From Vicugna vicugna (lineage: Eukaryota): a stretch of 64,000 nucleotides of DNA. The position numbers were made by a program, and so were the translations under genes. Every line of letters begins with the position of its first letter. Positions within the stretch are counted from its first letter, which is position 1. Positions 13,513 through 59,523 of the stretch are shown here, one piece after another. The notes beneath the pieces were generated by a model that saw only the letters and a list, made by a program, of their open reading frames with translations, did no database searches and had not been told where the DNA came from. The stretch spans positions 1,255,102 to 1,319,101 of the forward strand of contig MU057724.1 in the NCBI GenBank assembly GCA_013265495.1, in the 5' to 3' direction.

Positions 13513-13651
13513 AGCTTATTGTTTTGGGGGGTAAGGTAATAAGGTTTATGTATGTATTATTTTTTCAGTGGAGGTGCTGGGGCTTGAAGGATCGAAGCCA
13601 GGACCTCGTGCCTGCTCAGCACGCGCTCTCCCGCTGAGCTATGCCGTCCCC
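13513..13651 (-). mobile_element. tRNA-derived SINE (camelid vic-1-like)
   Basis: Reverse complement ggggacggcatagctcagcgggagagcgcgtgctgagcaggcacgaggtcctggcttcgatcc (A/B boxes) with A-rich tail; homologous to the copy at 52203. Confidence 0.8.
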
Positions 13652-14263
13652 TTTCTTTTTCTTTTTTCCCCCTGTCTTACTTGGTCAGTTAGATAAAGCA
13701 CGACTGCGATATTCTTGCCAGTTTACTTTATTCTGTTAAATGTTTAGCGTGTGCTTTCGCACAAGGAGAAATATACTAGTTAAGAAACCTCCCCATCAGA
13801 CACGTGCACTCTCTGATTTCATTGTATCAGTTTGTGCAGGTAAAGGTCTTCCTAGTCACTTAGCCTCCAAAGGGGTCCTAGCTTGGTCACCAGCATAGAA
13901 CAGCTTGGCCAGATAATGGAACTACATAATCATCTACTGTTTGGAGCCCTAAATAAGAATTTTTACAGTGGGAAGCCCTGGTGCACATTGAAGAAAATGC
14001 CTATTTAAGTCATCACCAATCGTTATTTGGAAAATTAAAAATTTTCAAAGTCAACTGTTATTAATTTAGTGGATGGCACAGTGAAATTGTAAACAGATGT
14101 CTCTCGGGAACACGGTCTACTTGGTAGAGAAATTCCACAGGTTTATTTAAATTTGATTTGGTGTTCATTAACACACTATTCATAGCCTATAGAGTTTTCA
14201 AACTCAAATTCCTATTTTTATTTTTTGAGCTTAAATGCACAATATATTATTTTCTCTTTTCAG

Positions 14264-15259: not shown

Positions 15260-15301
15260 ATAAATGGGATTAATGTGAGAAAATGCCGACATGAAGAAGT
15301 G
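15260..15301 (+). CDS. SNTG1: SNTG1 coding exon (42 nt): INGINVRKCRHEEV
   Basis: tctttccattgcag acceptor, gtaagt donor; phase 0-0. Confidence 0.96.
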
Positions 15302-15700
15302 GTAAGTTTGCTTTGCTTGGTGCTGAAATCGTGACTTTCCGCGGGCCAACGAGAACTGAGGGCGTCGCTTAAGAGCTGTTTGTTTTATTCATTAGCAAGA
15401 TACGACCTGGCCCAGTGGGCTATCGGATTTTCAAATGACCTTTTATTTGATCTTTCTTTGCATTAGCAACAGATCAGTGAGTATCACCCAGAACAGAATA
15501 TAACTCAAAGAAATTCTTAAGGAGGGCCATTTGCTATGTTTTCCAGCTTTTCTGTGAACTTCTACCAGCCTGTATCCACTAAGTATATCTCGAAGTGATA
15601 TACATCTCTAAACCTTGGCAAATGTTTAAAAGCTGATAAGGAATAAAATGCATGTTTCTAAAACCTCATACAGTAGCAGAGGCCATGGGGCAACATACAG

Positions 15701-15771
15701 TCTGTGTGTCCGTGTGTGTCCGTGTCTCTGTGTGTCTGTATGTGTCTGTGTGTCTGTGTGTGTCTGTCTGT
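15701..15771. repeat. Imperfect (TG/TC)n simple repeat
   Basis: tctgtgtgtccgtgtgtgtccgtgtctctgtgtgtctg... Confidence 0.8.
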
Positions 15772-15864
15772 GACAGGAGACAGAAGCAGACACAACACTC
15801 AGAGGCTCTCCATCCCAAGGCTCACGGGTGTAGCACTAGACAGAAAGGCCATCAGTGTTGACAC

Positions 15865-15968
15865 AGTGTTTCCTGGATGTTGGTAAATGTGTAGATCTGA
15901 AGCCGGGGCCTAATTCACTCAGTTTAGGTGATCCAGGAATGTGTATTTTAACAACCAGCCCAGTGAGT
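15865..15968. mobile_element. MER5A-like hAT-Charlie fragment
   Basis: 'ccaggaatgtgtattttaacaaccagccccagtga' resembles MER5A. Confidence 0.45.
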
Positions 15969-17119
15969 GCACTGTCGGGGGAGGAGGGTGTGTAGCTGGG
16001 AGGGTGAGGACCGTCTCTCGGGGCCGAGGGAGGACGTGGAAAGTGAGACAGGAAGGAACAGGACAGGGTCTGGCTTTCACGAAACGTTTTTCACGGTTGA
16101 TGAAATAACATGCATAGAACCTTCACTGAATTCCTGTCTCAGCTCACACGGGAGAGAGAGGAAAACTGTTTAAAGGTTTGCGCTCAAGGGTCAAACTACA
16201 TGAAAGCACTGTAAGCCTGTGCTCCTCCGGGCTCTGGTTCATCTGGTTGTGGATGCGCTGCTCCTCTGCCGCCAGCGACTTGGAGAAAACTCTTCTGATA
16301 TGTTTACATGTTTCAAACCTCAAAGAGTCAAGCGCAAGTGTCTGAAAAGTGCAGGCTCAGAGCAGCGCTGCTGGTGAGGGCTCTCCGCGCAGCCGTCACG
16401 GCCTGTCCCCAGGCATCACTCATCTGCTTTCTCAAAAGTCCCGAGGGGGCCCCCATTGCCACTCCATGGTGAACATCGCAGGTCGACATCAAACAGGACA
16501 GAGAAAAGCAGTGTTCGGAGCAGGCTTCAGACAAAGGGGGCCCAGCACAGCGCGAGCACTTTGCTCTGCAGATTCATATGCAAATTTCAAACACAGCTTT
16601 GTAAGCAGAGATGTTTTAACTTTAGGAGTTTTTCAGAAGAACAAAGTGATCTTAAGCTCATCGTCCAGGGAGCAGAAGCAAGGGCATCTTTTTGCAAAAC
16701 CGCACGCTGCTCGGCAGAGTTGTGTCCGGACCTGCCCTTCAGAGCGGGCAGCAGACCCACACAGACGTGATGGGCTCTGATTAAATGTAGCGGCCTGGTG
16801 GGAGGTTGGACCCTGCAAGTCGTGCCACTTCTCAATGGTGTTCCTTTCCAAGGAAAAGAGGTTTAGACTTGTGCTGCAAACTGCATGTGGCTCTGCACGG
16901 TAAATGGTTTGTTGGTTTGTTTGTTTTGAGAGGTTTGACCTTCTCCTGAAATGTAGGTACTAGTATTCTTACTCAGTTCCAGCCTTTCACTTTCCAGCAG
17001 TTATTAATGCTTTTGTCTTCACTGTGAATTTCCTAAGCAGATGGATTTACCCCTCAGTGGGACTGAGATGTTGATCAAACATGTAAGACTCACAGGGAAG
17101 GAAGGCAGCACCGCGAGCT

Positions 17120-17539
17120 TATTGCAGAAAGCTGATTCCCGCCGAGAGACCAAGCACCCCTCGCAGCGCTGGAGAACTCAGGTTTATTACGCCTGCAGGC
17201 CCAGAGGAGTTAGCGCTCCAAGCTCTGGACCCTGTCTGTAGGTTTACACAGGCTTTTATAGGGTTTTAGGTCTCGATTAAGTTTGCGCCATATGCAAACG
17301 AGGTGTTAGAAATGGACCAGTCTGGAGTGAGCTTTTGGGAACCAATGGAATTTTAGGGGTAAATGCAAATGAGGTGTTAGAAATGGACCAGTCAGGAGTG
17401 AGTCTTTGGGAACCAATGGACTTTTGGGGGTAAGTTTCATTTTCCTAGAAGCAAGCCGTTTTACAGAAGCCCAAAAGCGGGAAGGTAATGGCCCTGCCTG
17501 TGAGGTCTTGCTGGTCCCTTTGTGGGTTTTGCTGCTTCA
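17120..17539 (-). mobile_element. ERV1-type solo LTR (~420 bp), antisense to SNTG1
   Basis: 4-bp TSD AGCT at 17116-17119 and 17540-17543; termini TA(from TG)...CA; minus-strand TATAAAA (17254-17260) then AATAAA (17183-17188); 71-bp tandem repeat in U3. Confidence 0.8.
17292..17433. repeat. Two-copy 71-bp tandem repeat in LTR U3
   Basis: atgcaaaYgaggtgttagaaatggaccagtcWggagtgag...gggaaccaatgga...ggggtaa starting at 17292 and 17363. Confidence 0.92.
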
Positions 17540-17729
17540 AGCTCAGAGGTGTAGATGGTTGTAAAATCTCATGCTGCCGCCCCCTCGTTCCTTATTCCTA
17601 GTCAATGCCTCACAGAGCTGTGAATTCAGGGAGAAACCAGGAAGGTGTGGCACTAGGTGGTCTGCACATGTGACTTTTCTTTTATTCAGCCACTTGTGCA
17701 GGGACTTGGTCAGAGGGCCTGCATCATTC

Positions 17730-19763
17730 TTAGATGCTGTCAACAGTGTAGCAACAGTGTTGCACTTCCACCAGTAGTAACAGGAGGTTTCCCATTTCTC
17801 CAGCTAGCAGTTGGTGTTACCGGTTTTGTGGATCTGAACCATGTGTGTAGTGGTATCTCGTTCCATTTTAATTTACAATTTCTTTAAGATGAATGATGTG
17901 GGGCATCTTGTCAGATGCAAATTTGCTCTCTTTGTATTTTCTTTGGTGCTGTCTGTTCACAAACTTGTCCAGTTTTAAATTCTGTTATTTGTTTTCTTAC
18001 TATTGAACGTGACACATTCTTTATGTATATTGGAGGTATCTCCCTGTAAGTATTGGATACAACACCAAATATATGCTTTAAAGATATTTTCTCCGTCTCT
18101 GTGGGTGGGTTGCCTTTTAATTTTCTTAAAAGTGTATTTTGCGGAACGAAAGGTTTTTATTTTAATGAAGTCTAACACATCCATTACCAGATGGCCATAA
18201 AGATAGCTTTATTTCTTTCTCTAAGTCTATGTCACTTTTATTTATTTGTTATTGTCGTATTGCACTAGCCTGGGCTTCCAGCATGATTTGAACAGGTATT
18301 GTGAGAAAATATGCCTTTTTCTTGTTCCTGGGCTCAGTGGGAAAGAGTCCAGTTTCTCACCATAAAGTATGACGTTAGCTGTGGGTGTTTTGTAGAAGTT
18401 CTTTGTCAGGTTGAAGAGGTTCCCCTATGTTCCTAGTTTGCAGTGAATTTTAATCATGGTTGTATATTGAGTTCTTTCAAATGCTTCTTCTGCCTTAGTT
18501 GATATGACCATACTTGTTTTGTTTTTCAGACTTTTGATATGTGGATTATATCGGTTGAATTAAAAATGTTAAATCATCCTTGCTTGCCTGAAATAAGCCC
18601 AATCTGATGCGATATACAGTCCCTTTTAGACGTTGTCGGGCTTGATGTGCTGGTGATTTTTTGAAAATCATTGCATAAATGCTCATGAGACATACTGCTC
18701 TTAATTTTCTTTTTCTGTAATGTTTTTAAAATTGTTTTTGGTATTAGGATAATGCTGGCATCAAAAAATGCCTTAGGAAGGGTTGCCTCTGCCTCTGTGT
18801 TCTAGACGAGATCGTGGATGGCTGGTATTAATTACTTCTTCACCAAATATGTGATAGAATGCCCAAGGACATTTTCTGGATTGGATGCTTTTTTCTAGTG
18901 TTATTATTATTGGTTCCATTTCTTTACTACTAAAGAATATAGGCTATTTCCAGAGTATCTGTCTCTCCTCGCATGAGTTTTAGCAGTTGTGTCTTTCAAA
19001 GAACCGATCCAAGTCATCTAGGTTATCAGGGTTGTGGGCTTAGAATTGTTCACAGTGTTCCCTTCTTAACCTTTTCTTAACGTCCATGGAATCAACAGAG
19101 ATGCCCCTCTTTCATCTGTGATATTGGTCATTTGCATTTTCCCTACTTCTTAGTCTGGTGGGAGGTTCACTGATGTTTATTGATCATTTCAAAGAAGAAG
19201 TGTTTAGTTTTGATAACTTTTTTCTGTTGTGTGTGTGTGTTTTCCAGCTCACTGATTTCCTCTGTGATTTTGTTTCCTGTGTTCTTTGGGCTTTGACTGC
19301 TCCACTGTTTCTAGTTCCCTAAGCGGAAGCTTAGATCATCGACTTTAATCTCCTTTATGAGTATATGAATGTATCGCCATATAAACACATTTTACATGAA
19401 TTTCTCTCTAAACATTGCTTTCACTGCTTCCCACAAATTTTGAAAAGTTCTACTTCATTTTTATTTAATTCAAAATATTTTTAAATTTCTCTCCAGACTT
19501 TTTCTTTGACTCCTGTGTTAGATGGAAAGGTATTCTCCAGATGTTTGTGGGACTTCCGAGCTATCTTTCTGGAACCGACTGCTACTTTAAGTTCTTTGTT
19601 GTCCGGGGGCACAGTGTGTAGATTTACATTCTTTCAAAATTGTTAAGTTTTGTTTCTGGCCTAGAATCTGGTCTGTCTGTGAATTTTTTATATGAGCTTG
19701 GGAAGAACAGAAAAATCCAATGCATTTTGCTGTCTTTGGATGGAGTATTGGGCCAAAGTCTGT
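17730..19763 (-). mobile_element. Old LINE-1 ORF2/3' region, antisense; interrupted by MER44-type element and resuming ~20588-20830
   Basis: Minus-strand ORF 17975..18184 LDFIKIKTFRSAKYTFKKIKRQPT...ENIF resembles L1 ORF2p C-terminal region. Confidence 0.85.
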
Positions 19764-19765
19764 TA

Positions 19766-20585
19766 CCGCCGTTCCCTCCTTATCGGCAGTCTGGCTTTCC
19801 TGGATTCAGTGACCCGCGTCAACCACGGTCCAAAGATACTAAATAAAGAATTCCGGAAGAAAGCGTCCGCGCGTTTTACGTGGTGCGCCCGCTGGCTGCG
19901 GCGCTGACGTCCCCGCTGCAGCGCGTCCGCGGGGGCCGCGTCTCCCTGCTCCGCGCCGCGCCCGCCGTCACCCCACCGCCGCGGGGCTGTTAGGTCTGCT
20001 GTCCGCTGTCGCCCTGCGTGCGATCAGGTGCCCCCGAGTTTGCTCAGGAACGTCCCCGGAGCGCAGGAAGCGCGGCACTGCGGCTCGCTGAGCCACAGAG
20101 AAGCGGTGAAGTGCCTCCTGCAGGTGAAAAGCGGCGCTCGGGGCGCGGCGCCGAGAGGGGGGCGCGAGCTGGGCTGCCGACACCCGCCCGGAGAACGGGC
20201 CTTCCGCCCGAAACTGCCAGGAAGGAGACGGGAACGTGCCCCAGGTTTGCCGTTGCCCCTCACGCTGCGAGAGTTAGGGCCGCGGTTCCGGGGTTACGTT
20301 GCGGTGCTTCATTAAGACGGAAAAGGCGTTAACTTTGTGCGGTAGGATCATTTGAGAGCGAGAGAAGCCACATTCACATGACTTTGTGACAGGATACGGT
20401 TCCAGTTGTTCCATTTAATTGTTAGTCATTGTTGTTCGTCTCTTGTTGTGTCTAATTTATAATTAAACTTCATCACAGGTGGGTACGTCCGGGATAAAAC
20501 CGTCCACACAGGGCTCCGGGGTGCCCGGGGCTCCAGCCATCACAGGGGTGGTGGGGCGCGCCCCCTGTGGACGGGGGTGGTACTG
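19766..20585 (+). mobile_element. MER44-type (Tigger7-derived, TcMar) DNA transposon, full length, GC/CpG-enriched
   Basis: TA at 19764-5; 5' end ...ccctccttatc...ttcagtgacccgcgtcaaccacggtccaaa; 3' part ccacattcacatgact...ctaatttataattaaacttcatcacagg...tactg; peptide RKETGTCPRFAVAPHAARVRAAV resembles Tigger7 transposase N-terminus. Confidence 0.85.
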
Positions 20586-20841
20586 CATAGCGCTTGAGCG
20601 ACTGCTGTTCAGTCAACTCGGTCCTCACCGAGTCGCTGGCTGCTTGAACTCTGATACTGGATACGTCTGCTTCTCCTCTGAGTTCTGTCAGTATTTGCCG
20701 CATATATTTTGCCGCTTTGTTGTTAGGTGTTTAGCATCACTACGTATCCACAGGGAGTCCACCACTTAATTGCTGTTTAATGCTTCTCTTCAGCCTGGAT
20801 GATTTTTCCCGTTCTCAGGTCGGCTTTGTGCGTTCGTTTCC

Positions 20842-20960
20842 TGTGACAAATGCACTATACTAATGCGGGACGTTGTAACAGGGGAAGCTGAGTGTAGGCT
20901 GTACGGGAACCCTGTACTATTTTTGTTCAATTTTGTATAAACCTGCAACTGTTCCAGCAT
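20842..20960 (+). mobile_element. L1MC-like 3' end fragment
   Basis: 'tgtgacaaatgcactatactaatgc...gggaaccctgtactatttttgttcaattttgtataaacct'. Confidence 0.6.
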
Positions 20961-21959
20961 TAAATATTTGTATTAAACATGAATAGAATGGTACTTACCA
21001 TGATCTCATTTTCTTTTCCTTGTCTTTGACTTTTGTTTGCACTGCCTCCCATCAGAAGACCAGCATCTTGGGAGTGAGAACCGTCTCTCTTCCCTCCAGT
21101 GCTCTGCGCGCTGACCCAGGGCAGGCGAGCATGAGCCGCGGGCGCAGCAAACGAGACAGCCCCGCTGGTGCCAGGGTTCTCCTCCCCTCTTGTAAACCTC
21201 ACTCCCGCTTCGCTTCTCACTCTTTCCAAATAATTCCCACAGCTTTCGTATCAACCGACATAGAAGCTTTTACCAACTTAAGAAAAGTTTCAGACAGCAG
21301 CCCTTGGCCTGCTGGTTTTAAAACACTGTCTTCCTTCTCCCACCAAGAGCCGCGGGATAGAGTGGAGGCAACGGCACCCCGTCTCCACCTACCGCTCGCG
21401 GAAGCTCCCTTTGAGGTGCTCTTCGGGCTCTGAGTCATTCTTAATGCGTCTCTACATTTGGTTGCTTCGGGATTTAATCCGGCTCCATTCTTCAGTTGCA
21501 CATTTTAAGGTTTGAGTTCCTGCTTATCTGCTTCTGTGTCCCAGCTGAGGCTTTCTGAATGAGATGCCAGGTTTGGCAAGACTTTGTTTGAGACCCTTTC
21601 TGCTCCTGAAACCCGACCGCGGTCTTCCTTCTCCCCGCTGGAGTGACGTGCTCGTCGTCACGCAGGGGTGCTGTGCGGTGCTTTGCCTTCAGGACTTCTG
21701 GGACAACGCCCTGCTCTTTCTTCAGCGGTGAGCTGTGTCCGTGGAGTGCGCACAGCCGAGGGCGGGCGAGGGGGTGCGGGCAGCAGCGGGCAGCCCGCCG
21801 GCTGCTCCCTGAGCCGGGCCCGCCGCGGGGCGGGGGCCCCGGTGGTGTGGGCAAAACCAGGGTCAAACCCGAGTTCTTCCCATTCCACATAGTGTGATTT
21901 CTGACCAAACACAAAGGTTTCCCCACACTGAGTGAATCTGAAGACAGTAAAGTGAAAAT

Positions 21960-22039
21960 ACAGGTACTGTATTTACTGGGGAAAATGTGTATATTAGCAG
22001 GTCCGTGCAGTTCAAAGGAGTGCTGCTCCAGGGTCCCTG
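21960..22039. mobile_element. Tigger2-like terminal fragment
   Basis: 'gtccgtgcagttcaaaggagtgctgctccagggtccctg' resembles the Tigger2/MER28 terminus. Confidence 0.55.
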
Positions 22040-22799
22040 TGTTTACAGACGTTGCCTCTTTCTCTTTCTCAGGGTGAGTGGTGTGTCCTCAGGCTGCCAC
22101 TGGCTTGGTTTTCTGGGGGCTTATCCCGTGTTAGACAGCTCAGTAGTCTAAGTGTGGGAGACCTGCTTGTGGCTCTGAAGGTGAGAAAGTGAACGTGCAG
22201 GCCTAGTCAGAGGCTGCCGAGTGCGTCTCACTGGTGCCCCATGCATGTGTTGAATGAAGTACTTTATTAGTAAAGTACTTCTACTCTGGAGGTACACAGA
22301 GGTTCTATACTAAAGCATTTTATGTGAAACCCTTCTTTCCGTTTAAACTAATCCAATTATTTTTCTAGCATTAGGTACGTTTGTGAAGTAAGCACAAGAC
22401 ACCAGGCTCTTCTCTGAGCATCTCCCTGGTGCTGAACCACCTGGTCTTCGTGAAGTCGCTGGGGAGAAGCGACTACCGCTGTTGGTTCACAGGGAGCAGG
22501 TGTGTCCTAGAGGGATAAGTCAGTGCCCCGGGCTGTTCAGCTGGCCAGTTGCGGAGCGAGAACTCAGATGAACAGAATCTCACGCTAAGGCTCAGGTTTT
22601 AACAAGGACTTGCCATCTAGAGTGAACGGTTTGGGTGATTTTGTTACAGTAATCTTTCTTCCAAAGACATAGTCAAAGTTAAAGTTCTTGGCTTTTTTTT
22701 TTTCTTTTCTTTTTCATTAGGAATGTGATAGAGTTTGGGTGTTAAGGGACTCTTCTGATTATTCAGATTTCTGTTCTGAATCTCATCTAATGCCAACCA

Positions 22800-23500
22800 T
22801 TTTTTAAAAACCTGAAGTGTAGTTTGTTTCAAACATTGTGTCAATTTCTGGTGTACAGCATAGTGATTCAGTTATACATATACATATGTTCCTTGTCATA
22901 TTCTTTTTCATTATAGGCCATTATAAGATATTGAGTATAGTTCCCTGTGCTATATAGTAGGACCTTGCTGTTTATCTATTTTCTTTTATTTTTTAAAAAA
23001 ATTTTAATTGAAGTCTAGTCAGTTCACAATGTTGCATCAATTTCTGGTGTCCAGCATCATGTTTCAGTCATACACATACATACATATATTCCTTTTCATT
23101 ACAGGTTACTACCAGATATTGTATATAGCTCCCTGTGCTATATACAGGGAACTATACACAAGATAAACTTGTTGTTTATCTATTTTATATAGAGTAGTTA
23201 GTATCTGCAAATCTCAAAATCCCAATTTACCCCTTCTCATACCCTTTCTGCCCTGGTAACCATGAGTTTGTTTTCTATGTGAGTCTGTTTCTATTTTACA
23301 GATAAGTTCATTTGTGTCCTTTTTTTTTTTAGGTTCTACATGTAAGTGATATCATATGGTGTTTGTTTTTCTCTTTCTGGCTACTTCACTTGGTATGAAA
23401 ATATCCAGGTCCATCCGTGTTGCTGCAAACGGCATTATTTTATTCTTTTTTATGGCTGAGTAGTATTCCACTGTATAAATATACCACAGCTTCTCTCTAA
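22800..23500 (-). mobile_element. Lineage-specific L1 3' end, with the terminal ~185 bp present twice
   Basis: ORF 23352..23624 has KLWYIYTVEYYSAIKKNKIMPFAATRMDLD (L1 ORF2p C-term); flanking aaccattttt at 22795 and 23499. Confidence 0.88.
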
Positions 23501-23539
23501 CCATTTTTAAGTGCTCCAAATCTGTAACATGTTTTGTGT

Positions 23540-24085
23540 GAACAGAAAAATGCCTTCTCTCCTGCAGCCTCTGGAATGGGTTTCTTAGTGCCTGTTCTTC
23601 ACTTCTGTCCCCTTGGGGGGACATTCTTGGCTGTTTTCTCTGTCCTATCCAGCTTTCCTCGCCACCTCAGTGTCCCCGATGGCTTGTCTACCTGTGTCTG
23701 TAGAGCCTTAGGTTTAATGTGGTGTGAGATCTGTGTATCCTGCTTCCTCATGACTCCTTGGGGGTCCCTGTCCCGTCCTCTGATCTGCCAGCCCAGGCTT
23801 GAGTCCAGTGCCATTGTGGCTCCTGGGCCCGGCTGCCATCACCCCCTCGGAGTCCTCTGTCTCCGGCTGGCTGTGGGGCTCTGCTCCTCGTCTGTGCACT
23901 GCCTCGCTCCTCTGCTGACACTGTCCCCAAATCCCTGACTTCATCCTCCTGTCTGAAATATCTAGTTTCTATGACAAGATCTTGACAGTTCCAGATACTT
24001 ATCTATGTTTCAGATTTTCCTGGGCCCTTAATGAATGCAGTTAGATTTTTTCACTGCAGAATTTCAGTAAATGTTTTGTTGATTA
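23540..24085 (+). mobile_element. Decayed L2-like fragment
   Basis: Pyrimidine-rich L2-like text ending 'ttcagtaaatgttttgttga'. Confidence 0.4.
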
Positions 24086-25185
24086 GGAGATTAAATTGGA
24101 TGAGGAAAGTTTATAAAAATAGGTGAATTCCTAAGAATGGAGACTATAAAATCATCAGGCCTTAGTCTAAATGAGGAAAGAACACCTCAGGCTGGAACTC
24201 CATGCCGAATATCTTAAATGAAATGCTTGCATGTTGTTTCAGCCCTTCCTACCGCACATCTGACCTTCCAGCCCGTGTTAAGCCTCTCCCTCCATGCCCC
24301 CATCCCTGCCTTCGCCCCCACGCTATCCTTGCCCTGACTGTGGGGCCCAAGGGGATCGGGCAGATGCCATCAGCTTGTCCTTCTCCAGCAGGAGCAGATT
24401 TAACTCTGGGCAGCCCACGGTCAGGTGCAAGCAGCTGCCTTTGGGAGAGGTTCGGCCACTTTTAGTCCACGATGTGAGATATCTTGAAAATCACAGGAGA
24501 GAAATATGCCTGCGTCCACTGCAGCAGTCGGAGGTGTAATGCTTGGTTCACTTGAATTTATTTACTATTTACCCGGAGAGGCTTTTGGGCAAGGGACATA
24601 CAGCATCATAAAAATCCAGAGAAAATAAACGGAAACAACCTGCTGGTTAGCACTAAAATAATTAGATGAGACACACCTTGGCATGAAAATGGCAACAACG
24701 CAAAGCTTGCGGAAAGCACTTATGTCTCAGGTCTTTCCCTCACACTGGCTCGATGCTGAAGGTCTGGTCAAAGGCGTTTTATATTCCTAACAGAAGTCAC
24801 CTTTGATGCCCAGTCTAATCTATACAATTATAATTAAAACCTTAAAATGGTTAAAAATTGTTTATTTTCACAACCGAAATTAGCCTGTATTTAACAATAA
24901 AAAATATTTCATTGAAAGAATTACAGGTGGTAGAAATGAGGGAACACACCTTGAAGCTAATGTAGCTTAAATACTATGAGAGACACAAAACCATGATTAG
25001 CATTATTTTTATTAACAAACAGGTATTGAGTATCCAATGTACACATCACAGCTCTCGGAGAAGATTATCAGACTAGAAACTCTTTTCTTTTCGCAGAGTG
25101 TGTCTTTTGAGAGGATAGCCCCCGCAAAGCAGAGCTGCCGTAGTTTGAACACAATCTAAGACAGAGTTAGTGATTGATAGACTAA

Positions 25186-25206
25186 ATATATATATATATA
25201 TATATA
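25186..25206. repeat. (AT)n microsatellite
   Basis: ~10 AT units. Confidence 0.9.
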
Positions 25207-26064
25207 GTGCTTTATTTTGAGATTTTCATACTTTGTCCCTATAATCACTTACGGTCTGTATATTCAAGGAGTGTAAAGTTTGTGCTTCTCACTGGGCAGC
25301 AAATAACTTGGACCACATCAAATGAAATTCAGAGCCTCTGCTGTCCCCCCGTGTTACCACCTCTGGGACGGCACATGAAGTGGCCTCCTCTGTGTCACTC
25401 TGGACTGGGTGAGAGAACTCCTCATGTCTCTCTGAGGTGAGTTCTCATCGGCAGTCGGGAGGAAGCTCTGTGTCTCCCAGTTGCCCCAGAAAGAGCCGGA
25501 TGACGAGTTGGGGAAATGTCTAAGAGTTCCTTTTGAGCCTCTTGGCCGAGCAACGTCAAAGAGGAGACGTGCTGGGTTGTGCCTCATGGCGTTCTTCACG
25601 AGGCACTCGCTGTTGCTCCCAGTTGATGGTGTAGTTTCTGCCCAGGGATGAAGGTCCCAGGGTCCGCCCAGCCAGAAACAGAAACAGTGCTGGTCCTGGA
25701 GCTTCAGCCGCGACCCAGGTGGCGCAGACGCACTGACAGAGCCTCCAGCTTATGAGGCCCAGACAGGAGTGGTCAGCAGTGCTGAGGGGACGGCTCCCCA
25801 CCAGTGATCTGGCAGTTGGGGCCCCATCAGTCTTTTTTGGCTCCCCGAGCTGAGCTGGGAGCTGCTGCCCAGGTTGCTATGGGGACAGAGGGACAGGAGA
25901 CAGGGAGTAAGTGCATCCTTTCTTCTCTCGTGACTGCAGACATGGACCCCACGCTCAGGACGGCAGGTGTGACGACAGCAGGTGGAGAGAGGGTGAAGGC
26001 GTTTCCACCACATCAGGCTCTGGCAGGGAGCCCCGCATCTCTTCCTCCCACCTACTTACACCTG

Positions 26065-26300
26065 CTTTTTGTAAAAATGGAAGTATAGTCAATTTACAGT
26101 GTCTCAGGGGTACAGCAAAGTATGTTTTATATATATATATTTTTTTTTAATTTTTTGGATTCTTTTCCATTATAAGTTATTACAAGATATGGAATACAGT
26201 TCCCTGTGCTGCACAGTAGGTCCTTGTTGTTTACTATTTTATGTATAGTAGTGTGTGCTAATCCCAAATCCCTAATTTATCTCCCCTCCCCTCCTTCTGT
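26065..26300 (-). mobile_element. L1 3' end fragment
   Basis: 'gaagtatagtcaatttaca...ttccctgtgctgcacagtaggtccttgttgttta', same family as 22800 copy. Confidence 0.82.
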
Positions 26301-29010
26301 TTTTCAATATAAACGCTGGTGAGAATTACAGCCAGTGGATTTCTCCAGGGCGGCTTCATTTGAAACACCACATGGGAGTTCACCTACCCTCCATGGACGC
26401 TCATTCTTCTAAAATCTCTGACTGAGCATAAACCAACTCAGCTTCATATCTCAAGTGACCAGCCTGTAGGCTTCAGAAATGGGCATTCGTTGTCTTTGAC
26501 TCATTGAAAGAGACAGAGCTTGAGTTCCCTGGTACCCAGCCACTGCCCTGGGGCCACGCCAGATCCGTAAGATTCCAGGCGGCCTCTGACACGAGGCGGC
26601 TTTGGACCAGAGGGGTTGATGTCCTGGCACCCACTGTGTTTAACACATTGTCATGATCTGTTTACTCTTCCCTTAAAGTGTCTGTGGATTGAGACGAAGG
26701 CTCACGTGGTTTTCAGAGGCCTGGAATGAGGAGGTCTGAAGGAGGGAACAGGAGGGTTCCCCAAAGAGTCTTTTTGGTTTTTGCTTTTGTCATTTGGGGA
26801 CCAGGTAGCAGGATGTCCTTTGGGACTCTTCCAAGTAGAGAAGGAGACTTGAGAGACATCTGAGAAAACAAAATCAAAAGGCAATAAGTTGATAATTTGC
26901 TAAGGGCCATCCTTCTGTATTCTCAGTAATTTCCATGCAAATAAGATGAGGACACACTCGGTTTCCAGATAAAGTGCCTGCGTCTCATAAAGTCATGCAT
27001 TCTGCCCAGTTCATTAAATACCTGAATGGCTTTTATAACTGTCAGGTCTCCACCAGTTTTGTGTGTGATAAATTCCTCTGAAGACTGAGATTGGAAGTAG
27101 CAAAGTGAATGTATTTTCCTTCAGGTATTTAGCAACATATAAGGCATATTGTTTTCTCCTCGGTCATCTAACGCATAACATTTGAGACACACGGCTCTGC
27201 TCTCGAGTATCTGAAATGACCGGGCTTGCAGAGGAGCCACTGCTCCCCGGGGCCGGACAGCCGCGCTTCTCCTGTACGGACTTCGGGCTCGGAGGAGACG
27301 CTGGCGGAACCTGCCCTGGTGGCCGGGCCATGGTGCCTGTGTCTCAGGGTGTTCATGTTGTGCTCAGCGTGCACCCCAGGGGGACGGCACTTAAAAGTCA
27401 AAATAACACATTTAAGTGACTTCCATGATAGGATGAGATGACAGAGTGTGGAAGGAAAGGGTACAGGCAGTTCAGATAGTGACTTCTTAGTTCTGTGTTG
27501 TGCCCACAGGTTGGGATAAAATGCACAAACACACACACTTACAACTGTGTCTGAGGTTGCACATCCCATGTGGTGTCGCCACACCCCGCTTTGTTTTTCA
27601 GACATTGGCAGTTCGTTTTGTATAAGATGATCTGACACAGAATTCTGCAAAAATAAGGAAACATGATCTCTCTCCTTTCCTTCAACGATTCTCCTTAAAT
27701 TGGGTGCACTGTTTACAAACTAGACACTCGTGTCGCTGTGGTGTTGATGTTGTGGATTCAGAGTAAATACGTGCATTGCTTCTTGCAGGCTGCTGTGGGC
27801 GCGCAGTGTTGCCACCGCACCTCGCCTGACTCCGTGGGCTCTGGTCCCTTTGACAGCACACTGTTTCGCGCCCTTGTGGGGCTGGCTTGGTGCAGGTGAT
27901 TCACTGTGTGTCATCGGGCCCCCACTCCCCCTGCGGGTGCTTCTGAGGAGTGGAGGGCCTCTCGCAGGTCCGGCCCCGCACCGCGGCGTGGTGGGGGCTG
28001 CCTGTCCCACAGGGGGCGGCCGGCCCTCCCTGGGGAGGCCCCGGGCTTCCCAGTCAGCTCCGCTTCTCCCGTCTGCCTTTCGGAGTCGCACCGCCGTCGT
28101 CTCGCGCTTTCCTCGGTGTTTGCTAGTTGCACTTACTGGGTGAGAGAACTTTACCACATCTCACAGGGACCAGAAGTCACTCTCAGTCATTTTGACAGTC
28201 AATTCTTGAACGACCTAATGACGAACCCTTTTTCTGTGTTTAATGACAAATTACGCTCATGTGATTGTTACCTGCTTCGCTGTGTTCTTAACTCTCCTCT
28301 TAGTTTGTGAGATAATTATGGCTATGCTTAGATCTTCTCCAGCTATGTTTGCTGCAAGTGACCCTCAGCTCCTTGACCTTTTAGTATTGCTTGCATTGGT
28401 CTTGGTGTAATATTTTGAGAAACTAGCATCTTTTAACTGGAAGAAATAGACCCAGTAATTCCATAATTTGGAAAGTTTTGCGACTCTGATAATAAGGGTC
28501 TCCCTCATTGCTCTAAACTTTCAGGGAAAGGAAAAGAAAATAAGCCATGGTGTCATGGGGAAATAACATCTGTTTATTGTTTGCAAAACGGTTTGAGTGA
28601 GTTGGAATGATTTAATTAATTAGAATTAGCACCCTGGTCGACAGCTACGGGACCATTCATTTGTACGTCTCCAAACAATACATCACGGATACTCAATAAA
28701 TATTTATTAAATCAGTAAATGCAGTGGTTTGAGCAGTGCATCTTTCTGTAGACTGAACACAGACCATAGAGCCTCAAGAGAGGCTCAGTGCACGTGCGTG
28801 GACGATGACGACGTTGTGAGTGAACAGGGACTACGGTGGTGGGAAGAGGGCAGTGGCGGGCTGGTTCCTGCAGCATGAGAGAGCCTGTCCCCTCTGTCTT
28901 CCACGAAGAGCTTTGACCACTAGGAAAAACTGTGAGAGGTGGAAAAAACAACCAGTTATTTCAAGGATTTTCAATAATATACAAATTTTTGGCAGGCATA
29001 CTGATAATGA

Positions 29011-29052
<42 letters not shown>
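29011..29052. repeat. (GAT)14 trinucleotide microsatellite
   Basis: 14 perfect GAT units counted directly. Confidence 0.96.
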
Positions 29053-29053
<1 letters not shown>

Positions 29054-29066
29054 ATTTTTGCATTAG

Positions 29067-33717: not shown

Positions 33718-36467
33718 GTAAGATGGCCAAGGCGCAGACCCCGTTAATAAGGAGGGAGCTTGGGGAAGGTCTAGGGAGAATACGTGTAGCGTCAGTGCGC
33801 AAAAACTGCTGTGAAGTCCAGTTTCTCTGATATGTTTGAAATCCGTGGTTGCTTCATGATTTAAGGATCACGATAATCCAGGGAGGAAAAACACGAGTAG
33901 GTCGGTTACTTTTTTGATGTCACTTTTCTCTTCTCAGGTCTGTATGAAGCCCTCTGTGAGCTACAGAAACTTACCTTTGGGACACCACGTGTCACATCAT
34001 ATAGTCACCTAATAACATTGCATATTATATGTGGTTGCATGTTCTATGTCATTTGACATAACTTTCATCATTTTTTCTTTTGAAATTATTTTGCTATAAG
34101 TAGCTATGTAATTTGCCACACATTAGGATTTCTTAGCACCCTTCATGCACACCAGGGAATTAATGCAAAGTGGGGAGACCTAACCTACACATTACATGAG
34201 ATGTGAGGAACGTTAAACTATGCATGTATTTAATAATTGATAAAATTGACTTGTTTGTTTTATATCCATTTAATAAAGTGTCCATTTTGATTTTCCACCT
34301 GTATTTGGGAGTAAGCAGGTTTTTCTTTTTTCTTTCATAATAGATTTTTGAAACTCCTTGTATCTCACTCTTCAGAACATTCCCACGTTCTGAAGACAAA
34401 CGATTCTGCCTGGTTAAACGTGAGGCTCACAGCATCCCCTGTGCTCACTTTATGCGGAATTTTTGTTTACTGTTCCACGTGTTAGGCTGTGTGAGACACG
34501 TAGCTTTTTCTTCTGACATGGACAGTTCACTCTCCACTGGGAATCCTTGCCCTCGCTGTGGCATTTTTCTTCCAAGCCCTCCTCTTGGGCACCTCCAGGC
34601 CCTCGTGGAGCCATCGTGCTGAACCGCACCAGCACCCATCGCGGCTGAAGGCCTCCGGGCCCCACGTCTCTCCCGTTTGGTTGGTTTAGCTCCTGCAGGG
34701 GAACCCTGGGCACCACCGAGGGTCATCTGTGCAGGTGTAGACCCGCCACACTGGGGGCACTTCATCTGGCTGCCTCTTTTACTTTGTTACCAGAGAAATC
34801 GTCCCACGAGGGAGGCTGTTTACAATGCGGATCTTCAGAAGACGGGGATCTGAGTAACTTAGCGGCTGCTTTCCTGGTGGGGAAACGGCTAGACACGCCC
34901 TGGGCCCTGCAGCACTCCAGGGCCCGCGAGGGGCAGAGGGGGCCGCTCCGGCCTTAGTGATGGGGCGACTTGGTCGGTTCTGGCCCTGGGGCCTCGTCGG
35001 TTTGCCCTCGTGGGTCACACAGGGTCGCTGTTTCTCCAGGTGCCCTCCTGCAGAAAAGACAGGGGCGCAGGGGCTGAGCGCTCGGAAGCGCCTCACTTCC
35101 CTTCTGTGAGAGGGGCCCGTGACGGCCTGTCTCTGGGACAGGTGCGGGGAGGCCGGGGCATCGCAGGACCCTGCCTGGGACTCGTGGGCTGGGGGAGTGG
35201 CCTTTCTGCACCCGGGGGTCTCACTCTGCTCGGGAGCCTGAGCCCTGACAGCCCTGCTGAGCTGTCACCACCGCCTGTGTCACGTCATGTGACGTGAAGG
35301 CCGGGGGAGAGGAGGACGGCTCCTGTGGCCCCTGGTCTGGCCCCTGGGGTGGCCCCACGAGCATGTCTTACACGGTGGGGGGGGCGTCCTGGGGACCAGC
35401 CACGGCCCCTCACCACCATCGGAGTCAGGCCTCCCTCTGGCTGTGGGACGTGGCTGAGGACTTGGCCAACCCTCACGGGCACTGTGGTTGACAGTTACCA
35501 TAAAGAACACTCCACCTTTAGCAAAAAATACGTAACAGTTTTTCCCCTAAGCAATTTTGAAGAAATTAATACCTGAAAGAGGCTAAAAATGTTACGCTCA
35601 CAGGGCTTCAGCACCTGCACTAGAGCAGGGTCTCCTCCAGCCTCAGGACTCGGGCACGGTGGGGTCTGGCAGCAGGGGAGCCGGCGCCGGGGCCCCAGGC
35701 CGGACGGAGCCTGGCTCTCACAGCTCCTGCGCCGTGTCGGCGTCCTTCCCTGTGTGCCACTCGTGAGCAAGTTTAGCAATGAAGCTGGGATCGTGAAAGA
35801 AGGGTAGATTCACATCAAGTGAAAAGCTCAGATTTTATTCAAATACATGTCTTCTCTACGCATAAGGAGAAAATACCCACACTTTTAATGACACCTAAAA
35901 TACATGTAATCTTAAACCTGTAGAAAACAACATAAGGAAATACAAACGTGTGAGCATGAGGGTTAAACAGTGGACAGAGGTTTCCTTGAGTTGAGCTGGG
36001 GAGCTGTTTTAGGGGAATGCTCATTCTACTCAAAAATCTCTCTAAGTAACTGATGGATCACAAGGCCTTCTAACAACGTTTAATGCTGAGCAGATAGGAA
36101 CCATTTGCTTAACTGAATGGACTATGATTATTTGACTTTTGTCACCAGCTAGTTCTTTGCAGTTAGTTTCGCCCCACCTTTCCATCCTTGAGTGAATTCA
36201 GTTGTCACGGTTTTATTTTTTTCTTCCTCCTCCTCACCCCATTTTTTCGTGTTTTCAGTTTGGTTCTTGAGCTCAGTGTGTCCCTCCTCACTTTCTCGTA
36301 GAATTCCGTGGATAGAGAAATTAACACAAGTAACTTCACTGTCAGTGAACATGAACGTCTTGTGGTATTTTATCCGCGTCTTGTGATGGTTTAGGGATAG
36401 GCGTCCCTCAGATGAGGAGGGCTTGTGACGTGGAGCCCACGGCACTGAAGGCTCCTTTCCTTTTCAG

Positions 36468-36598
36468 GACACGTTATCCTGCTCCTCGTGGCCCGCGTGC
36501 CCCGGGCTGAGGTGGGAAAAGCGATGGTGCGACCTCAGACTGATCCCTCTGCTGCACTCCCGCTTCTCCCAGTACGCGCCGGGGACGGACCTGAGCCG
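36468..36598 (+). CDS. SNTG1: SNTG1 coding exon (131 nt): DTLSCSSWPACPGLRWEKRWCDLRLIPLLHSRFSQYAPGTDLS(R)
   Basis: cctttccttttcag acceptor, gtgagt donor; phase 0-2. Confidence 0.96.
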
Positions 36599-37039
36599 GT
36601 GAGTCCCGCGGGCGGCTCTCCCTAGCCGTGCGCCCCCAGGAGCAGGCCACACGCGTCAGCGCGGGCGGCCGAGGCGTCGCCCGGCGCTGTCCTCTTTGTT
36701 CCCGCTGTCTGGTGTAACTTCGTGTCGAGCGGTTTCGCTCCTTTGGTATTTCCCGAGACTTGGTTTCACTCAGTATTGAACTAATTTTAGGAAATGTTCC
36801 ACGTGCACTTCAGAGAGTGTGCAGTGTCCACACAGTGCAGCCCGGTCACGTTTTTCATTGGAGATTGTGATCCTCTAATAACTAGTAGTGTGGCTGCTTC
36901 TCGTTGAAAACTCCACCCCCTGAAGGCCGTCTGGGCGGCCCCAGGGGTTGGTTTTTCCAGGCAGAGCTGCTGTGGGCACTTGGGTGTGGGCTTCCGGGCG
37001 AAGAGGCATTCTCACTCCCTTGGGCGCGAGCTCGGAGCG

Positions 37040-37470
37040 CAGCTGGCCGCACGGCAGCAGCGTGCCTAGTTTGCCGAGGGGCAGCCGAGGGTTTGCGGGG
37101 GGCGAGCGGGCGCCGGCCGGGCCTCCGCGGCTCTGCCGGGACTCGGTGTTGCCGTCTCCCGTTTCGCCGCTCCTGCAGGCACAGTGCAGGTAGGATTCAC
37201 CGCCGCGGCCTGAATGTGCACATCCCGGTGCTGCTGGGCGTCTTGCCCTGTACTTATCCGTCGCATGGAACCCGCTTTGGTGAAATGCTGCTTTGTCTTT
37301 GGACCATTTTGTAATTGGCTTTATTTATTTGTTTTTATTTACTTTTTGACTGCTGAGATTTGACAGTTTTATATGTGTTCAAGAAAAAACTCCTTTGTGT
37401 CAAGTTTTTGTACTCTATTCTAACTTTTTTCAAATAGTTGAACATTTTGATTTTTAACATTCCCTCTGTG
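37040..37470 (-). mobile_element. Old L1 ORF2 C-terminal fragment with GC-converted left half
   Basis: Collinear by eye with L1 copies at 17760-18010 and 30230-30530. Confidence 0.55.
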
Positions 37471-40465: not shown

Positions 40466-42850
40466 ACAAAGAATTATCATTTAGCCCGGGGACCCTCAAG
40501 GCTACAATAATTGTGGCTAAAGTTTAATGTCTCACAGCACAAAACCGAATTAACATGTAATGCATCTTATTGATTTCAGAGAGCGTACGATCAAACAAGA
40601 TGAAACACATAAGTTTTGGCTTGACAATTTCTGATTATCTTGACCCAAAAATGACATTTTCTGAAAGCTGCAGACACCGCCGCGCACTGCCGCTGCCCCT
40701 CAGTGCTGGGTGACAGACGTTGTCACTGAGCTGCCCCAGACACCGCAGTCGGGACCACATGGCGGTGGTTCATTCGCAAGCTTCTGTGATACGTGAAAGC
40801 GTCTGGGTCCTACCAGTTACTCCATAAATTCTGACTGAATCCGTAAAGGATATTTTGCTCATTTTCTTTTAGGGAAATCGAGGCACAACGAAGTAGCCTC
40901 AGTTGCCAGTGTTCTTATTTATTCTAACAGAGGCAGGAATGGGGCCCAGGCTGCCGTCCTTACGCCCCGTCTGCCTTCCAAGAGGCCACATGGAAGCAAA
41001 GAGCCCGTTCAAATGCTTCGCTCGTATTCCTGAAAGGGTTTCTGACAAACCCGCCAAAAAGTGGAAACATCGTAGACGGTGATGTATGTTGGCAGCTTAG
41101 CCCGGGTTTACGAAAGGTCAGTCTTCAGACTGACTCTGCGTGCAGACGTCGCGGCGCGTGTGACTGCACGGACGGCAGACTGGCTCCGGGGCGCTGGCTT
41201 TAACCAACCGAGGTACCCAGGCGCCGCGACGCATTTACAGCAGAGAGGACGGCGATGTTCAGGACAGACTGCAACTTGCGGTGCATGAAGCAACGGTTGT
41301 GATGACCAGCGAGCAGAGAGAACCGTGTGCGACTAAATGCAGACTGGTTCCCGCACGGAGAGCTGAGCTTCCGTGCACTGCAGATCTCTCGCTCACTCTT
41401 GAATATCAAAATTAAGCTAAGAAATTCAGGTCAAGTTGCAATATTCTTCTTGTGCTTAGCGTATTCTTTTCTTGTCACAAATTCAAAAGAACGTCATTTC
41501 AAAGAGAGGAAGAATAGTTGTCCCTTCTTAGGCTTTTTGTGTATTTTTAAGAGCAAACGAAAAAGAATATTTGAACACTTCCTGTTATCAGTAGAAAGCG
41601 CTTGGTCTGCAGCAGGTTTCTCTGGAGATGTTCATAATGTGGATGCAGGGTGCCCGGACGGGAAAGGTTTGCCTCGCGTCCAGTTCTGAGACCGGACCAG
41701 TCTCGTGGGACGGGAGAGCGAAGCGGCCCCCGTGGTGGTCCTGGGCCAGACACATGCCCCTCGTGTGGGGTCTTTGCTTGTGGAGATGAAATCACGTGTA
41801 GAATCTACAAACCTCTACTCAAAAAACTCAGAAGAGAGAGAAAAACTATTTAATTGGAGAAAAACATATAAATGTATGCCATTTACATCACATTTTGAAT
41901 ACTGAATTAAAGAATTTTTCTATTGCTTCAAAACGGGCTGGGATTTAAATATAATTTGTGCATTTTCTGAAGTATATTGTGTCGCGTCACAGAGTAATTC
42001 TCAAACATGAGGATTTGGCTACTTTTCATTCATTTGGGGTTTTCTTTAAATCTATTCCTCTCCATTAAGCTTATATCGAAACATGCAAGAGCCTGATACA
42101 GGAAAAAAAGTGAACAATTAGAGCTGTAGGAAGCTGCTTTAAATTCTACAGCACTTTTGTCAATGGCTCCATTTAATTTTCTCTAACAACAACAAAAACA
42201 GCAAAATCTCAGTGGAGGATTATAGAGACACTTAGGCCGACTGCTGCATTTTAAGTCAAGCGTGGTGGTCGTGCACCACACGCACGTAAACTTCAAATGT
42301 GAGTATTCAGAGCAGGTGAGGAGCTATGAACCTCTTGTCCCAAACCGCTTGAGAAGGTGGGTAACAGCTGGTTCCACAGCTGACAACATGCTCCAGCTCC
42401 TGACGTCACGTGGTATGATGCCCAGTCTCTGGGTGTGTGGCTTTTGTGTGTCCATTCTGTGACATCAGAAAATGCACTGAAAAATGGCAAGAGGAGGCGA
42501 TGGTACCCAAAACGATAAACACCAACATGTGATTCCATGGCACGCGGGGAAAGAAGCCCCGTCAATGTCTTAGCTGTTTTCCACTTACGTAACGTACATT
42601 TGACATCTCAGAGGTTTTCCAGATCCATCTGAATCTCAGAATGCTTTCTCGTACCTCAGAATCGTGTGTTGCCTGCATTCATCCTGAGGGCTCCTTTTAA
42701 AAACATATTTTTATGAGAAGTAAGCAAATATGAATTTGAAGCTGCATTTATACTGTTTGAAAGAAGAGCTTTCGAACAGATAACTATTTCAAGTTGCTAA
42801 GAGACAAGCGAGATGATGCTTCGGTCTAATTTGTTGTGACATCTCCGCAG

Positions 42851-44049: not shown

Positions 44050-45310
44050 TTCAGCTACACACACACACACACACACACACGTATATTCTTTTTCACTTTC
44101 TTTTTCATTAGAGGTTATTATAAGATGTTGAACGTAGCTCCCTGTGCTGCACAGAAGAGACTTGTTTGTCTATTTCATACTTGGTAGGTAGCATCTGCGA
44201 ACCTCCCACCCCCAGCGTATCCCTCCCCGCTCCCCTTCCCCTGGTTACAAGTTTGTTCTTTGTGTCTGTGAGTCTCTCTCTATTTTGTAAATATGTTCAT
44301 TTGTGTCTTTCCCTCTTTTTTTCCTTTTTGGATTCCACGTATGAGTGATACCATGTGGTATTTTTCTTCCTCTTTCTGACTTGCTTCACTTAGTATGACA
44401 ATCTCCAGGTCCATCCGTGTTGATGCAAGTGGCATTATTTTATACTTTTTATGGCTGAGTAGTATTCCATTGTAAATATATATCACAGCTTCTTCATCCG
44501 ATTATCCATTGATGGACATTTAGGCTATCTCCATGTCTTGGCTATTGTAAATAGTGCTGCTATGAACTTGGGGTGCAGGTGACTTTTCAAATTAGAGTTC
44601 CTTCTGGATAGATGCCCAGGAATGAGACTGCTGGGTCACATGGTTAAGTCTATTTTTAGTTTTTTAAGGAACCTCCATACTGATTTCTATAACAGCTGCA
44701 CCAACCTGCATTCCCCCCAGCACTGCAGGAGGCTCCCTTTCTCCACAGCCTCTCCAGCATTTGTCGTCTGTGCGCTTTTTAGTGATGACCATTCTGGCTG
44801 GTGTGAGGTGACACCTCATTGTAGTTTTGATTTGCATTTCTCTGATAATTAGTGATGCTGAGCACTTTCTCATGTGCCTGCTGGCCGTGGTATGTCTTCA
44901 CTGGAGAACTGTTTGTTCAGGTCTGCTGCCCGTTTTGGGTGGGGCTGTTTGCTCTTTGCTGTTGAGCTGTGCGAGCTGTTTGCATGTTCTGGAGGTCAAG
45001 CCCTTGTCAGGCTCATCATTTGCAGGTGTTTTCTCCCAGTCCATAGGTGGCCTTTTTGTTTTGCTTATGGTTTACTCTGCTGTGCAAAACTTATCGGTTT
45101 AATTAGGTCCCATTTATTTTTCTTTTATTTCTGTTTCCCGGGTGGACTGCCCTAGGAGAGCACTGCTGACACTTACGTCACAGAATGTTTTGCCTGTGTT
45201 TTCTTCCAGGAGGTTTATATAGTGTCTTGACTTATTTTAAGTTAATTTTTTTGTGTGATGTGAGGAAGTGTTCTAATTTCACTGATTTCTATGCAGCTGT
45301 CCAGCTTTCT
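44050..45310 (-). mobile_element. Lineage-specific L1, 3' ~1.25 kb, antisense
   Basis: ORF 44664..44873 [33 protein letters not shown]...KCWRGCGE and 44280..44486 KIMPLASTRMDLEIVILSEASQ are L1 ORF2p C-terminal remnants. Confidence 0.92.
44057..44080. repeat. (AC)12 microsatellite at L1 3' end
   Basis: Direct reading. Confidence 0.92.
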
Positions 45311-45900: not shown

Positions 45901-47368
45901 CAAGAGCGAGGCTGTAGAGTGAGGCACACACATGAACTCACCTAATACGGAGACTGTCACTGGTCCTGGGCAAAATGAAATAGTTTAGACCAAAATAAGT
46001 GAGTTTTTCATAAATCTCAATTACTTTTTGGGAACAGGTTGTCAGTTTGAAACATGTCTTCCTATGTCTGTGGTTTCAAATGTCCGTTTTTTTTCAAAAT
46101 GATGACTATCGCAGGTAAGACTTGTCTTAACTAAAATCGGTGTTTAATAAAGTAAGAGACTGTTTGCCTACGACATCCCAGCGAACTGTCAGAAGTTTAA
46201 TGCTCCTGGAAACGCGTGTCTCCGAGTTGCTGAGCCAGAGCCTTGCCAGACAGGGCAGTATAGATATGTCCCTAAAACAACTGGGCACCTGAGGTCACTG
46301 AACGCCAGGGCGGCGGAACCTGTGACGTCACCAGCAGAATACAAATCCTTAAGGGGAGGTTCGATTTTGGAACGTCCCCAGGATCAACTCCTCAAGTCTC
46401 TCCAAGGCTGACCTCACCGTAACTTGAAAATGTTCGTGGTATTAACGGTCTCTGTCACAGCGCTATTCACACGCACACGCACACACACAGTGTGGCAGGG
46501 AACACAGAGTGTAATCGAAGACTAAGGTAGTGGAAGAGACCAAGGGCTGCGAGCCTGAGTGGGGCGGGCACACGGCAGCGCTGGGGAAGGGGTCTGTAGG
46601 CACTAAGCCGGAGCTGGGAGGGCAGCCCCGAGCGCTCGCTGTCTGGTCACAGGGGTTCACGCCGATGCGCTGGCCAAGCCGTCCCTGCCGCGTGGAGGGA
46701 GCCAGGCTTTGGGGTCCACAGACGCGTAGGTCGGGGCTTCGTGAGCCCCTTCAGAAGCAGACCGTAGGTTAGCTTCCGTCCCTGCGAGGGCTCAGTGAGA
46801 GACTTCCGACCCGCCGGCCCTGAAAGCCCGCTGAGACGTCGGCGCTTCTCTTCTCTGCAGTTTCCCTCTAGATTAAATGATTGGATCCCTGAGCCGCTGG
46901 CAAATGCAGCATCGATTTGCTCACTGCACGTGAGGGTGCAGTCTTGGCTTTGTCCCGTTGTCTCTGAGATTCTTCCTCTTCTGAGAGATGGTTGTTTGGA
47001 TAACAGAATGTTGGTAAAACTGGACAAAATGAGTTAAATAAATGTCCAGTGGTGACTAGACCATTAGGCAGCTCTGATTTGTCAAGCCAGAGATCTGCAC
47101 ACAGTCCCTCGTCTTTAAAAGAGACAGAGGAACAGGTAAAAAGCAGAGCTCTCTTTCAGCCACATTTCATGGGTCTGCCCTTTCCCATCGTTCTCTACCG
47201 CTGCAGCGCTAAGATAAACCCTGACCAATACACAGAGAATTTCATGTGCCACTTCTCCCAAGGTTACCTACTAACATAAAAGAATCTCCTCTGGTCTAAA
47301 TTCTTCCATATTTGTCCTATGCACGCATTTCCTTTATTGGAATGGAATATGTTGCTTGAAATGTATCA

Positions 47369-59498: not shown

Positions 59499-59523
59499 CC
59501 CAGCCCAGCCCAGCCCAGCCCAG
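59499..59523. repeat. (CCCAG)5 pentanucleotide repeat
   Basis: Direct reading. Confidence 0.88.

Follow-up and report, generated by a model that had tools for sequence, protein, structure and literature searches.

On sequence comparison, the stretch at 19766-20585 is a Tigger7-derived (MER44-type) miniature transposon whose centre, relative to other Tigger7 copies, has shifted from A or T (weak, W) towards G or C (strong, S) and now forms a CpG island; strong local GC-biased gene conversion (gBGC) provides what is probably the best explanation of this W-to-S shift. The element lies in an intron of SNTG1, on the strand of that gene, in a vicuña DNA stretch of 64,000 nucleotides, the whole of which is called the window below. 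The features concerned are the following.

15302-29066, + strand: intron of SNTG1 (gamma-1-syntrophin) holding the element, ~13.8 kb, placed by the exon match downstream
17744-19279, - strand: old antisense L1 ORF2, likely host of the insertion and W/S-balanced control (PDB, tblastn and blastn matches)
19764-19765, + strand: TA target site at the left end, read from the sequence
19766-20585, + strand: Tigger7-derived non-autonomous element of MER44 type, 820 bp (by-eye and blastn comparison)
19766-19787, + strand: decayed left terminal inverted repeat, which agrees with the human Tigger7 start in 15 of 21 columns (by eye)
19860-20330, no strand: CpG-island core and zone of strongest W-to-S rewriting (GC 0.707, 66 CpG, observed/expected (o/e) 1.12)
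20050-20339, + strand: dead remnant of the transposase start, from the DNA-binding region, frameshifted and lacking its start codon
20383-20500, + strand: AT-rich 3' segment, moderately GC-shifted (blastn to contig L027, 72%, E 1.6e-15)
20562-20587, - strand: right terminal repeat, strongly decayed, 10 of the first 15 bases as at the start of the human copy (by eye)
20588-20900, no strand: right shoulder of raised GC (GC 0.48, CpG o/e 0.82)

The identity of the element as MER44/Tigger7, proposed in an earlier note on this DNA, is borne out by collinearity with human Tigger7 exons and by the L027 match. From 19766 the window runs collinear, by eye, with the start of a human Tigger7-derived first exon (GTF2IRD2B record), and across 19989-20339 with the GTF2I record; 267 of 405 columns are identical to these two RepeatMasker-annotated exons (by eye), and the divergence of ~34% from the human copies is mostly one-way. 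The references were the first 400 letters of GTF2IRD2B and GTF2I isoforms with Tigger7-annotated first exons (PMC6169893 supplementary file 2), a comparison that leaves outside it the 3' end of the element and most of 19914-19988. Within it, 20050-20339 shares 157 of 241 columns with the coding start of the GTF2I Tigger7 exon (by eye). The 12-mer and the peptide quoted in the earlier note are both present in the window.

The element is built from ~580 bp of Tigger7 5' end and ~230 bp of 3' end, resemblance to the coding frame ending near 20340 and the 3' segment, which L027 has as well, beginning by 20383; this amounts to a 5' part joined to a 3' part; we take the segment at 20383-20500 to be the Tigger7 3' end. 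Motif scans of genome contigs (0, 1 and 0 matches), viral contigs (0, 8, 3 and 1) and metagenome contigs (4) yielded 17 loci, among which only L027 matches well beyond the motif. L027 and L016, the latter used below for the L1, are public microbial or viral contigs; both appear chimeric, with bacterial-type DNA joined to mammalian repeat DNA, which in L016 (from 548 onwards) is an L1 ORF2 and in L027 (~1100-1394) comprises the 3' segment of the element together with another stretch that looks like a repeat.

MER44A-D are described as non-autonomous Tigger7 derivatives (TcMar-Tigger; PMC5753468, PMC1914374), a family consistent with the structure seen here, in which a Tigger7 5' end is followed by a short remnant of coding sequence and then by a 3' segment. 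The element resembles the members of this family in the collinear 5' end, the coding start, the AT-rich 3' segment, the left TA and the internal deletion; it differs in its terminal repeats, ~20-24 bp in such elements, which are no longer self-similar, a self-comparison score as high being reached by 1449 of 2645 randomly drawn pairs and by 1929 of 3000 shuffles, so that it is not above chance. Tigger elements are reported with TA on both flanks (PMC9219625), and the right target site here is CA where TA would be expected, which one T-to-C change would explain. Searches for a transposase in the element returned no match in Pfam (0 of 5 frames), in a homologue search (0 of 15 candidates), in Atlas or in PDB; one profile-library match (P0003) was rejected as spurious, the protein being repetitive.

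The placement in SNTG1 rests on the exon starting at 29067, which shares 22 of 23 residues with gamma-1-syntrophin (E 2.9e-07, against 0.003 for gamma-2), and on the upstream exon at 15260-15301, which is AG..GT-bounded with an open frame and which we take to belong to SNTG1; the frame is open in all eight SNTG1 exon pieces examined within 10587-42981. On the left, the antisense L1 is traced by ORF2 C-terminal fragments at 17744-18172 (- strand; tblastn with 120 fragments), by residues 500-572 of the PDB L1 ORF2p at ~18577-18795 (- strand; E 0.018) and by blastn matches to L016 and a further reference contig, L017, at 18214-19279 (- strand). The tool-confirmed L1 stops at 19279, about 490 bp left of the element, and in the DNA touching the element no L1 match was found in PDB, in Pfam (0 of 14 frames) or in a homologue search (0 of 11 candidates); when L016 was aligned to the flanks next to the element, the scores did not exceed those of shuffles, and both L016 and L017 begin too far into ORF2. 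The frames flanking the element presumably belong to the L1 endonuclease region, the region to which extrapolation of coordinates would also assign the insertion point, and the right flank at 20588-20900 is presumably L1 as well. The element thus stands beside or inside an antisense L1, which is its likely host. The proposal of an insertion inside an AT-rich L1 holds up to 19279 as regards antisense ORF2, and for the adjoining DNA it stands on collinearity and on assumed resemblance. The left flank (17700-19400) has GC 0.373 and CpG o/e 0.34, and 19500-19763 has GC 0.40 and o/e 0.30, against the higher values of the right shoulder.

Within this setting the centre at 19860-20330 is, as had been described, extremely rich in GC and CpG: within the window no other stretch of 471 bp has as many CpG (the runners-up hold 47 and 42), and the CpG/GpC ratio of the centre is 0.93. 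The merged island at 19716-20744 (1029 bp, GC 0.596, CpG o/e 1.03) qualifies as a CpG island on sequence criteria (length of 500 bp or more, GC of 55% or more, CpG o/e of 0.65 or more). For mammalian DNA, the window as a whole has a high CpG content (o/e 0.53), with 35 merged patches passing a 200-bp island filter, and the island is the strongest peak within a generally raised region. In an alignment-free comparison the coding remnant has 67% GC and 35 CpG in 290 nt, against 43% and 7 CpG in 293 nt of the human copy. For the coding remnant the claim of a de novo island is therefore sustained; for the 5' part it holds less, since the human copy already bears 8 CpG in 165 nt there (47% GC, by eye), and the island is only partly de novo.

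The sharp contrast in composition with the flank might suggest a foreign origin for the GC-rich block, or an artefact of assembly, a reading so improbable as to be nearly negligible, because collinearity with Tigger7 runs straight through the core, and a plasmid search gave two short chance matches and a phage search none.

Against the two human copies, the 405 columns hold, besides the identical ones, 100 W-to-S, 23 S-to-W and 15 neutral differences (by eye; p 1e-12). These main counts come from a hand alignment, with statistics scripted on the hand counts, and all reference copies are paralogues, so that the differences are unpolarised and are placed on no branch. The core (about 19859-20339) gives a ratio of W-to-S to S-to-W of 90:16, against 10:7 at the 5' end (p 0.018), the latter counted by eye over the terminal repeat and 19806-19859; the left terminal repeat taken separately differs from the human Tigger7 copy by 3 W-to-S, 2 S-to-W and 1 neutral change (by eye). 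By eye the ratio is 11:1 at 19859-19888, 5:0 at 19901-19913, 14:1 at 19989-20041 and 60:14, with 10 neutral differences, over the seven pieces (241 columns) of the coding remnant; the last aligned piece, 20304-20339, gives 4:5. From the hand counts 154 S bases are predicted in the window's 241 columns, and a script finds 154. Ambiguous stretches (20132-20164, 20288-20303 and most of 19889-19988) were left out of the hand alignment; in the first of them 30 of 33 window bases are G or C, against 14 of 39 in the reference. Among the GC-neutral differences in 20050-20339, C/G swaps number 9 and A/T swaps 1 (a hand count, with small numbers).

A scripted comparison of the 3' segment with the independent copy L027 comes out at 23:5; dropping CpG columns leaves 16:5, and dropping the search motif, which contains three of the 23, leaves 20:5. 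GC is 0.373 in the window and 0.218 in L027, and per site the skew is mild, at 23 of 92 (25%) W-to-S and 5 of 26 (19%) S-to-W. The antisense L1 flank is balanced by the same measure (136:140 and 116:107 by blastn to L016 and L017), and the three SINE copies of the window, at 17:12 and 16:8, have no significant skew. By eye and by script, then, the differences are mostly from A/T to G/C, as the earlier note had it, and its proposed check for a W-to-S excess, run here on paralogous copies, found the excess and left that reading standing. Expressed as class switches, the coding remnant has S at 60 of the 133 sites that are W in the reference and W at 14 of the 108 that are S there, compared with switches at 136 of 648 W sites and 140 of 385 S sites in the L1 flank (p 4e-8 and 2e-6, respectively).

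Part of such a difference could arise if the element had been GC- and CpG-rich from the outset and had escaped decay, the reference copies having drifted to A/T; the CpG-bearing 5' 165 nt of the human copy would fit this, as would up to 18 of the 60 W-to-S differences of the coding remnant, which are attributable to CpG decay in the human copy. Dropping those 18 nevertheless leaves 42:14 (p 2e-4), and the independent copy L027 is also AT-richer than the window. The human coding exon, moreover, comes from a family that has been exapted and is subject to strong purifying selection (a dN/dS of 0.019 is reported for GTF2IRD2; PMC6169893) and keeps an open, lysine-rich frame at 43% GC, whereas the frame in the window is broken; original richness is accordingly a highly improbable account.

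A local mutation bias toward G/C, from error-prone repair or break-linked mutagenesis and with no bias in fixation, is another candidate source of the shift, and a hint of an unusual spectrum is given by the coding remnant, where S-to-S differences affect 9 of 108 sites and W-to-W differences 1 of 133. The types of change there, however, show strand symmetry, with transversions among them (A>G 25, T>C 21, A>C 9, T>G 5), and the raising of all four W-to-S types on both strands together with a lowering of S-to-W is the pattern of a fixation bias; mammalian mutation, besides, is AT-biased. Mutation bias without fixation bias is for these reasons very unlikely.

The remaining alternative is that selection built or keeps the island, the element having been co-opted as a promoter or enhancer of SNTG1. 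Tigger7 5' ends do serve as first exons in human GTF2I and GTF2IRD2, with an isoform that is relatively high in testis (PMC6169893), MER44B/C/D are reported as enriched in accessible chromatin with AP-1 motifs (bioRxiv 707612, PMC12212084), and the motifs present in the island include one that is CRE-like, one that is ETS-like and two GC boxes. These counts are near the shuffle expectation (0.36, 0.21 and 1.55, respectively), a motif scan of the island found no AP-1 site, many similar CpG-rich patches occur in the window, and one-way change at ~45% of the A/T sites of the coding remnant (measured against a paralogue), over hundreds of bases, is fast divergence and not conservation. Co-option is therefore improbable. 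As a separate observation, the CRE-like motif at 19905-19910 results, by eye, from two A-to-C/G changes with respect to the human copy, its chance expectation being the 0.36 given above.

Strong gBGC acting on the element accordingly keeps the standing of best explanation that had been claimed for it, on the strength of a W-to-S excess centred on the element. The shift is strand-symmetric, localised, one-way and set in dead non-coding sequence, and it is weak at the 5' end and in the left flank; the destruction of the reading frame excludes selection on a protein. A W-to-S excess at non-CpG sites, on both strands and relative to the flanks, is what characterises a gBGC tract, and it is found here in unpolarised form, against paralogues.

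Under gBGC, a Tigger7/MER44 miniature transposon would have inserted into an old L1 in the SNTG1 intron ~85 million years ago, an age taken from the literature (the mean age of MER44 is given as near 85 Myr; bioRxiv 707612). Later, on the lineage to Vicugna, meiotic recombination would have been focused, during long or recurring periods, on ~0.5-1 kb at the element, and mismatch repair of heteroduplexes favouring G/C would have fixed A/T-to-G/C variants while the reverse variants were lost. The gain of CpG would be a by-product of the W-to-S change, and the sequence need serve no function. In a toy simulation with author-chosen rates, the passage from 43% to 65-78% GC needs a population-scaled bias B of ~5-8 over a time of 0.15, or 3-5 over 0.3, and CpG o/e reaches ~1.0 at B of at least 5 even with 10-fold CpG mutability. 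An o/e near 1 was consequently rejected as proof of hypomethylation, the island being, by this ratio, compatible with either methylation state in the germline. A B of ~3-8 averaged over the whole period would be too much for one short-lived PRDM9 hotspot, and the amount of change thus implies, within this model, a hotspot that was long-lived or repeated.

The choice between a stable, promoter-like 'default' hotspot and repeated hotspots in a region of high recombination is about evenly balanced. The default version would perhaps have been seeded by the CpG-bearing 5' end of the transposon, which is plausible as a promoter-like seed given the 8 CpG of the human copy 5' end and its testis-expressed first exon. 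The fuller proposition, that a promoter-like Tigger7/MER44 5' end opened germline chromatin and founded a PRDM9-independent hotspot that reinforced itself through new CpG, is a tentative possibility and somewhat doubtful.

Comparable systems have been described. gBGC makes new, mostly non-genic CpG islands in dog (Berglund et al. 2014, PMC4350167), and the dog GC-peaks and islands share with this element a short, non-promoter island and accelerated W-to-S substitution; dogs, however, are without PRDM9, whereas supplement 1A of PMC5519329 gives camelids an orthologue with intact catalytic tyrosines, so that the dog model does not transfer directly, and the present case is a single locus. A loss of PRDM9 zinc fingers in camelids was considered and dropped, the label in the table concerned being identical for human PRDM9 (PMC5519329). 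PRDM9-independent hotspots are reported as active in 39 of 52 mammals, including species with PRDM9 (Joseph et al. 2024, PMC11161765). Like these 'default' hotspots, the locus has a GC* peak on the kilobase scale, and the species probably carries PRDM9; the difference is that the default loci are orthologues of mouse knockout hotspots at hypomethylated regions (PMC11161765) and the present one lies in a transposon. A text search of the main text and four supplementary files of that paper, figure labels aside, found no mention of camelids. The short episodes of strong gBGC described at human hotspots (Glemin et al. 2015, PMC4510005) share the local W-to-S burst; they are brief, while a change as large as the present one requires an episode that lasted long or recurred. 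In the dromedary genome, divergent sites are reported as densest in CpG islands (PMC4973839). No literature on the locus or on gBGC in camelids was found in a search whose scope stopped short of most subscription papers.

The creation of islands by gBGC is already known from dog, and this single locus contributes one more instance without a new mechanism. A transposon remnant that was AT-rich is now classed as a CpG island and goes unrecognised in homology searches at the protein level, and the locus is a clean record, in neutral sequence, of how far recombination-linked conversion rewrites DNA. Should seeding by the transposon hold at many loci, camelids would represent a lineage that has PRDM9 and in which insertions nevertheless routinely give rise to new, long-lived default hotspots, and dated repeats would serve as clocks for the birth and lifespan of hotspots; the value of the locus rises if this element and similar loci show such insertion-seeded, long-lived hotspots in camelids despite PRDM9.

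Several other features of the window were recorded. A second GC peak lies ~1 kb right of the element at 21600-21870 (GC 0.705, o/e 0.78; 85% at 21750-21849) and could represent either a further conversion tract or the 5' part of the L1 beside the element. A second 1-kb island at 36324-37334 (GC 0.60, o/e 0.87) covers a likely SNTG1 exon at ~36471-36599, whose open frame has GC3 of 0.88, against 0.29-0.74 in the other seven SNTG1 exon pieces examined, and in which a few residues presumably differ from the human protein in the GC direction. Further intronic CpG-rich patches lie at 40991-41412, 46385-46988, 48490-49582 and 59118-60080 (o/e 0.64-1.06). A younger antisense L1 3' end at 44481-45309 gives W-to-S to S-to-W ratios of 109:66, 85:35, 75:29 and 89:73 against unrelated L1 copies, a G/C lean against three of the four references that suggests, from these comparisons, a regional bias acting after the insertion of that L1. 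A tRNA-like SINE, which we take to be a camelid SINE, is present in three related copies (13515-13655 on the - strand, 52203-52340 and 56030-56125), and at 17292-17433 a 71-bp unit is tandemly duplicated with 91% identity.
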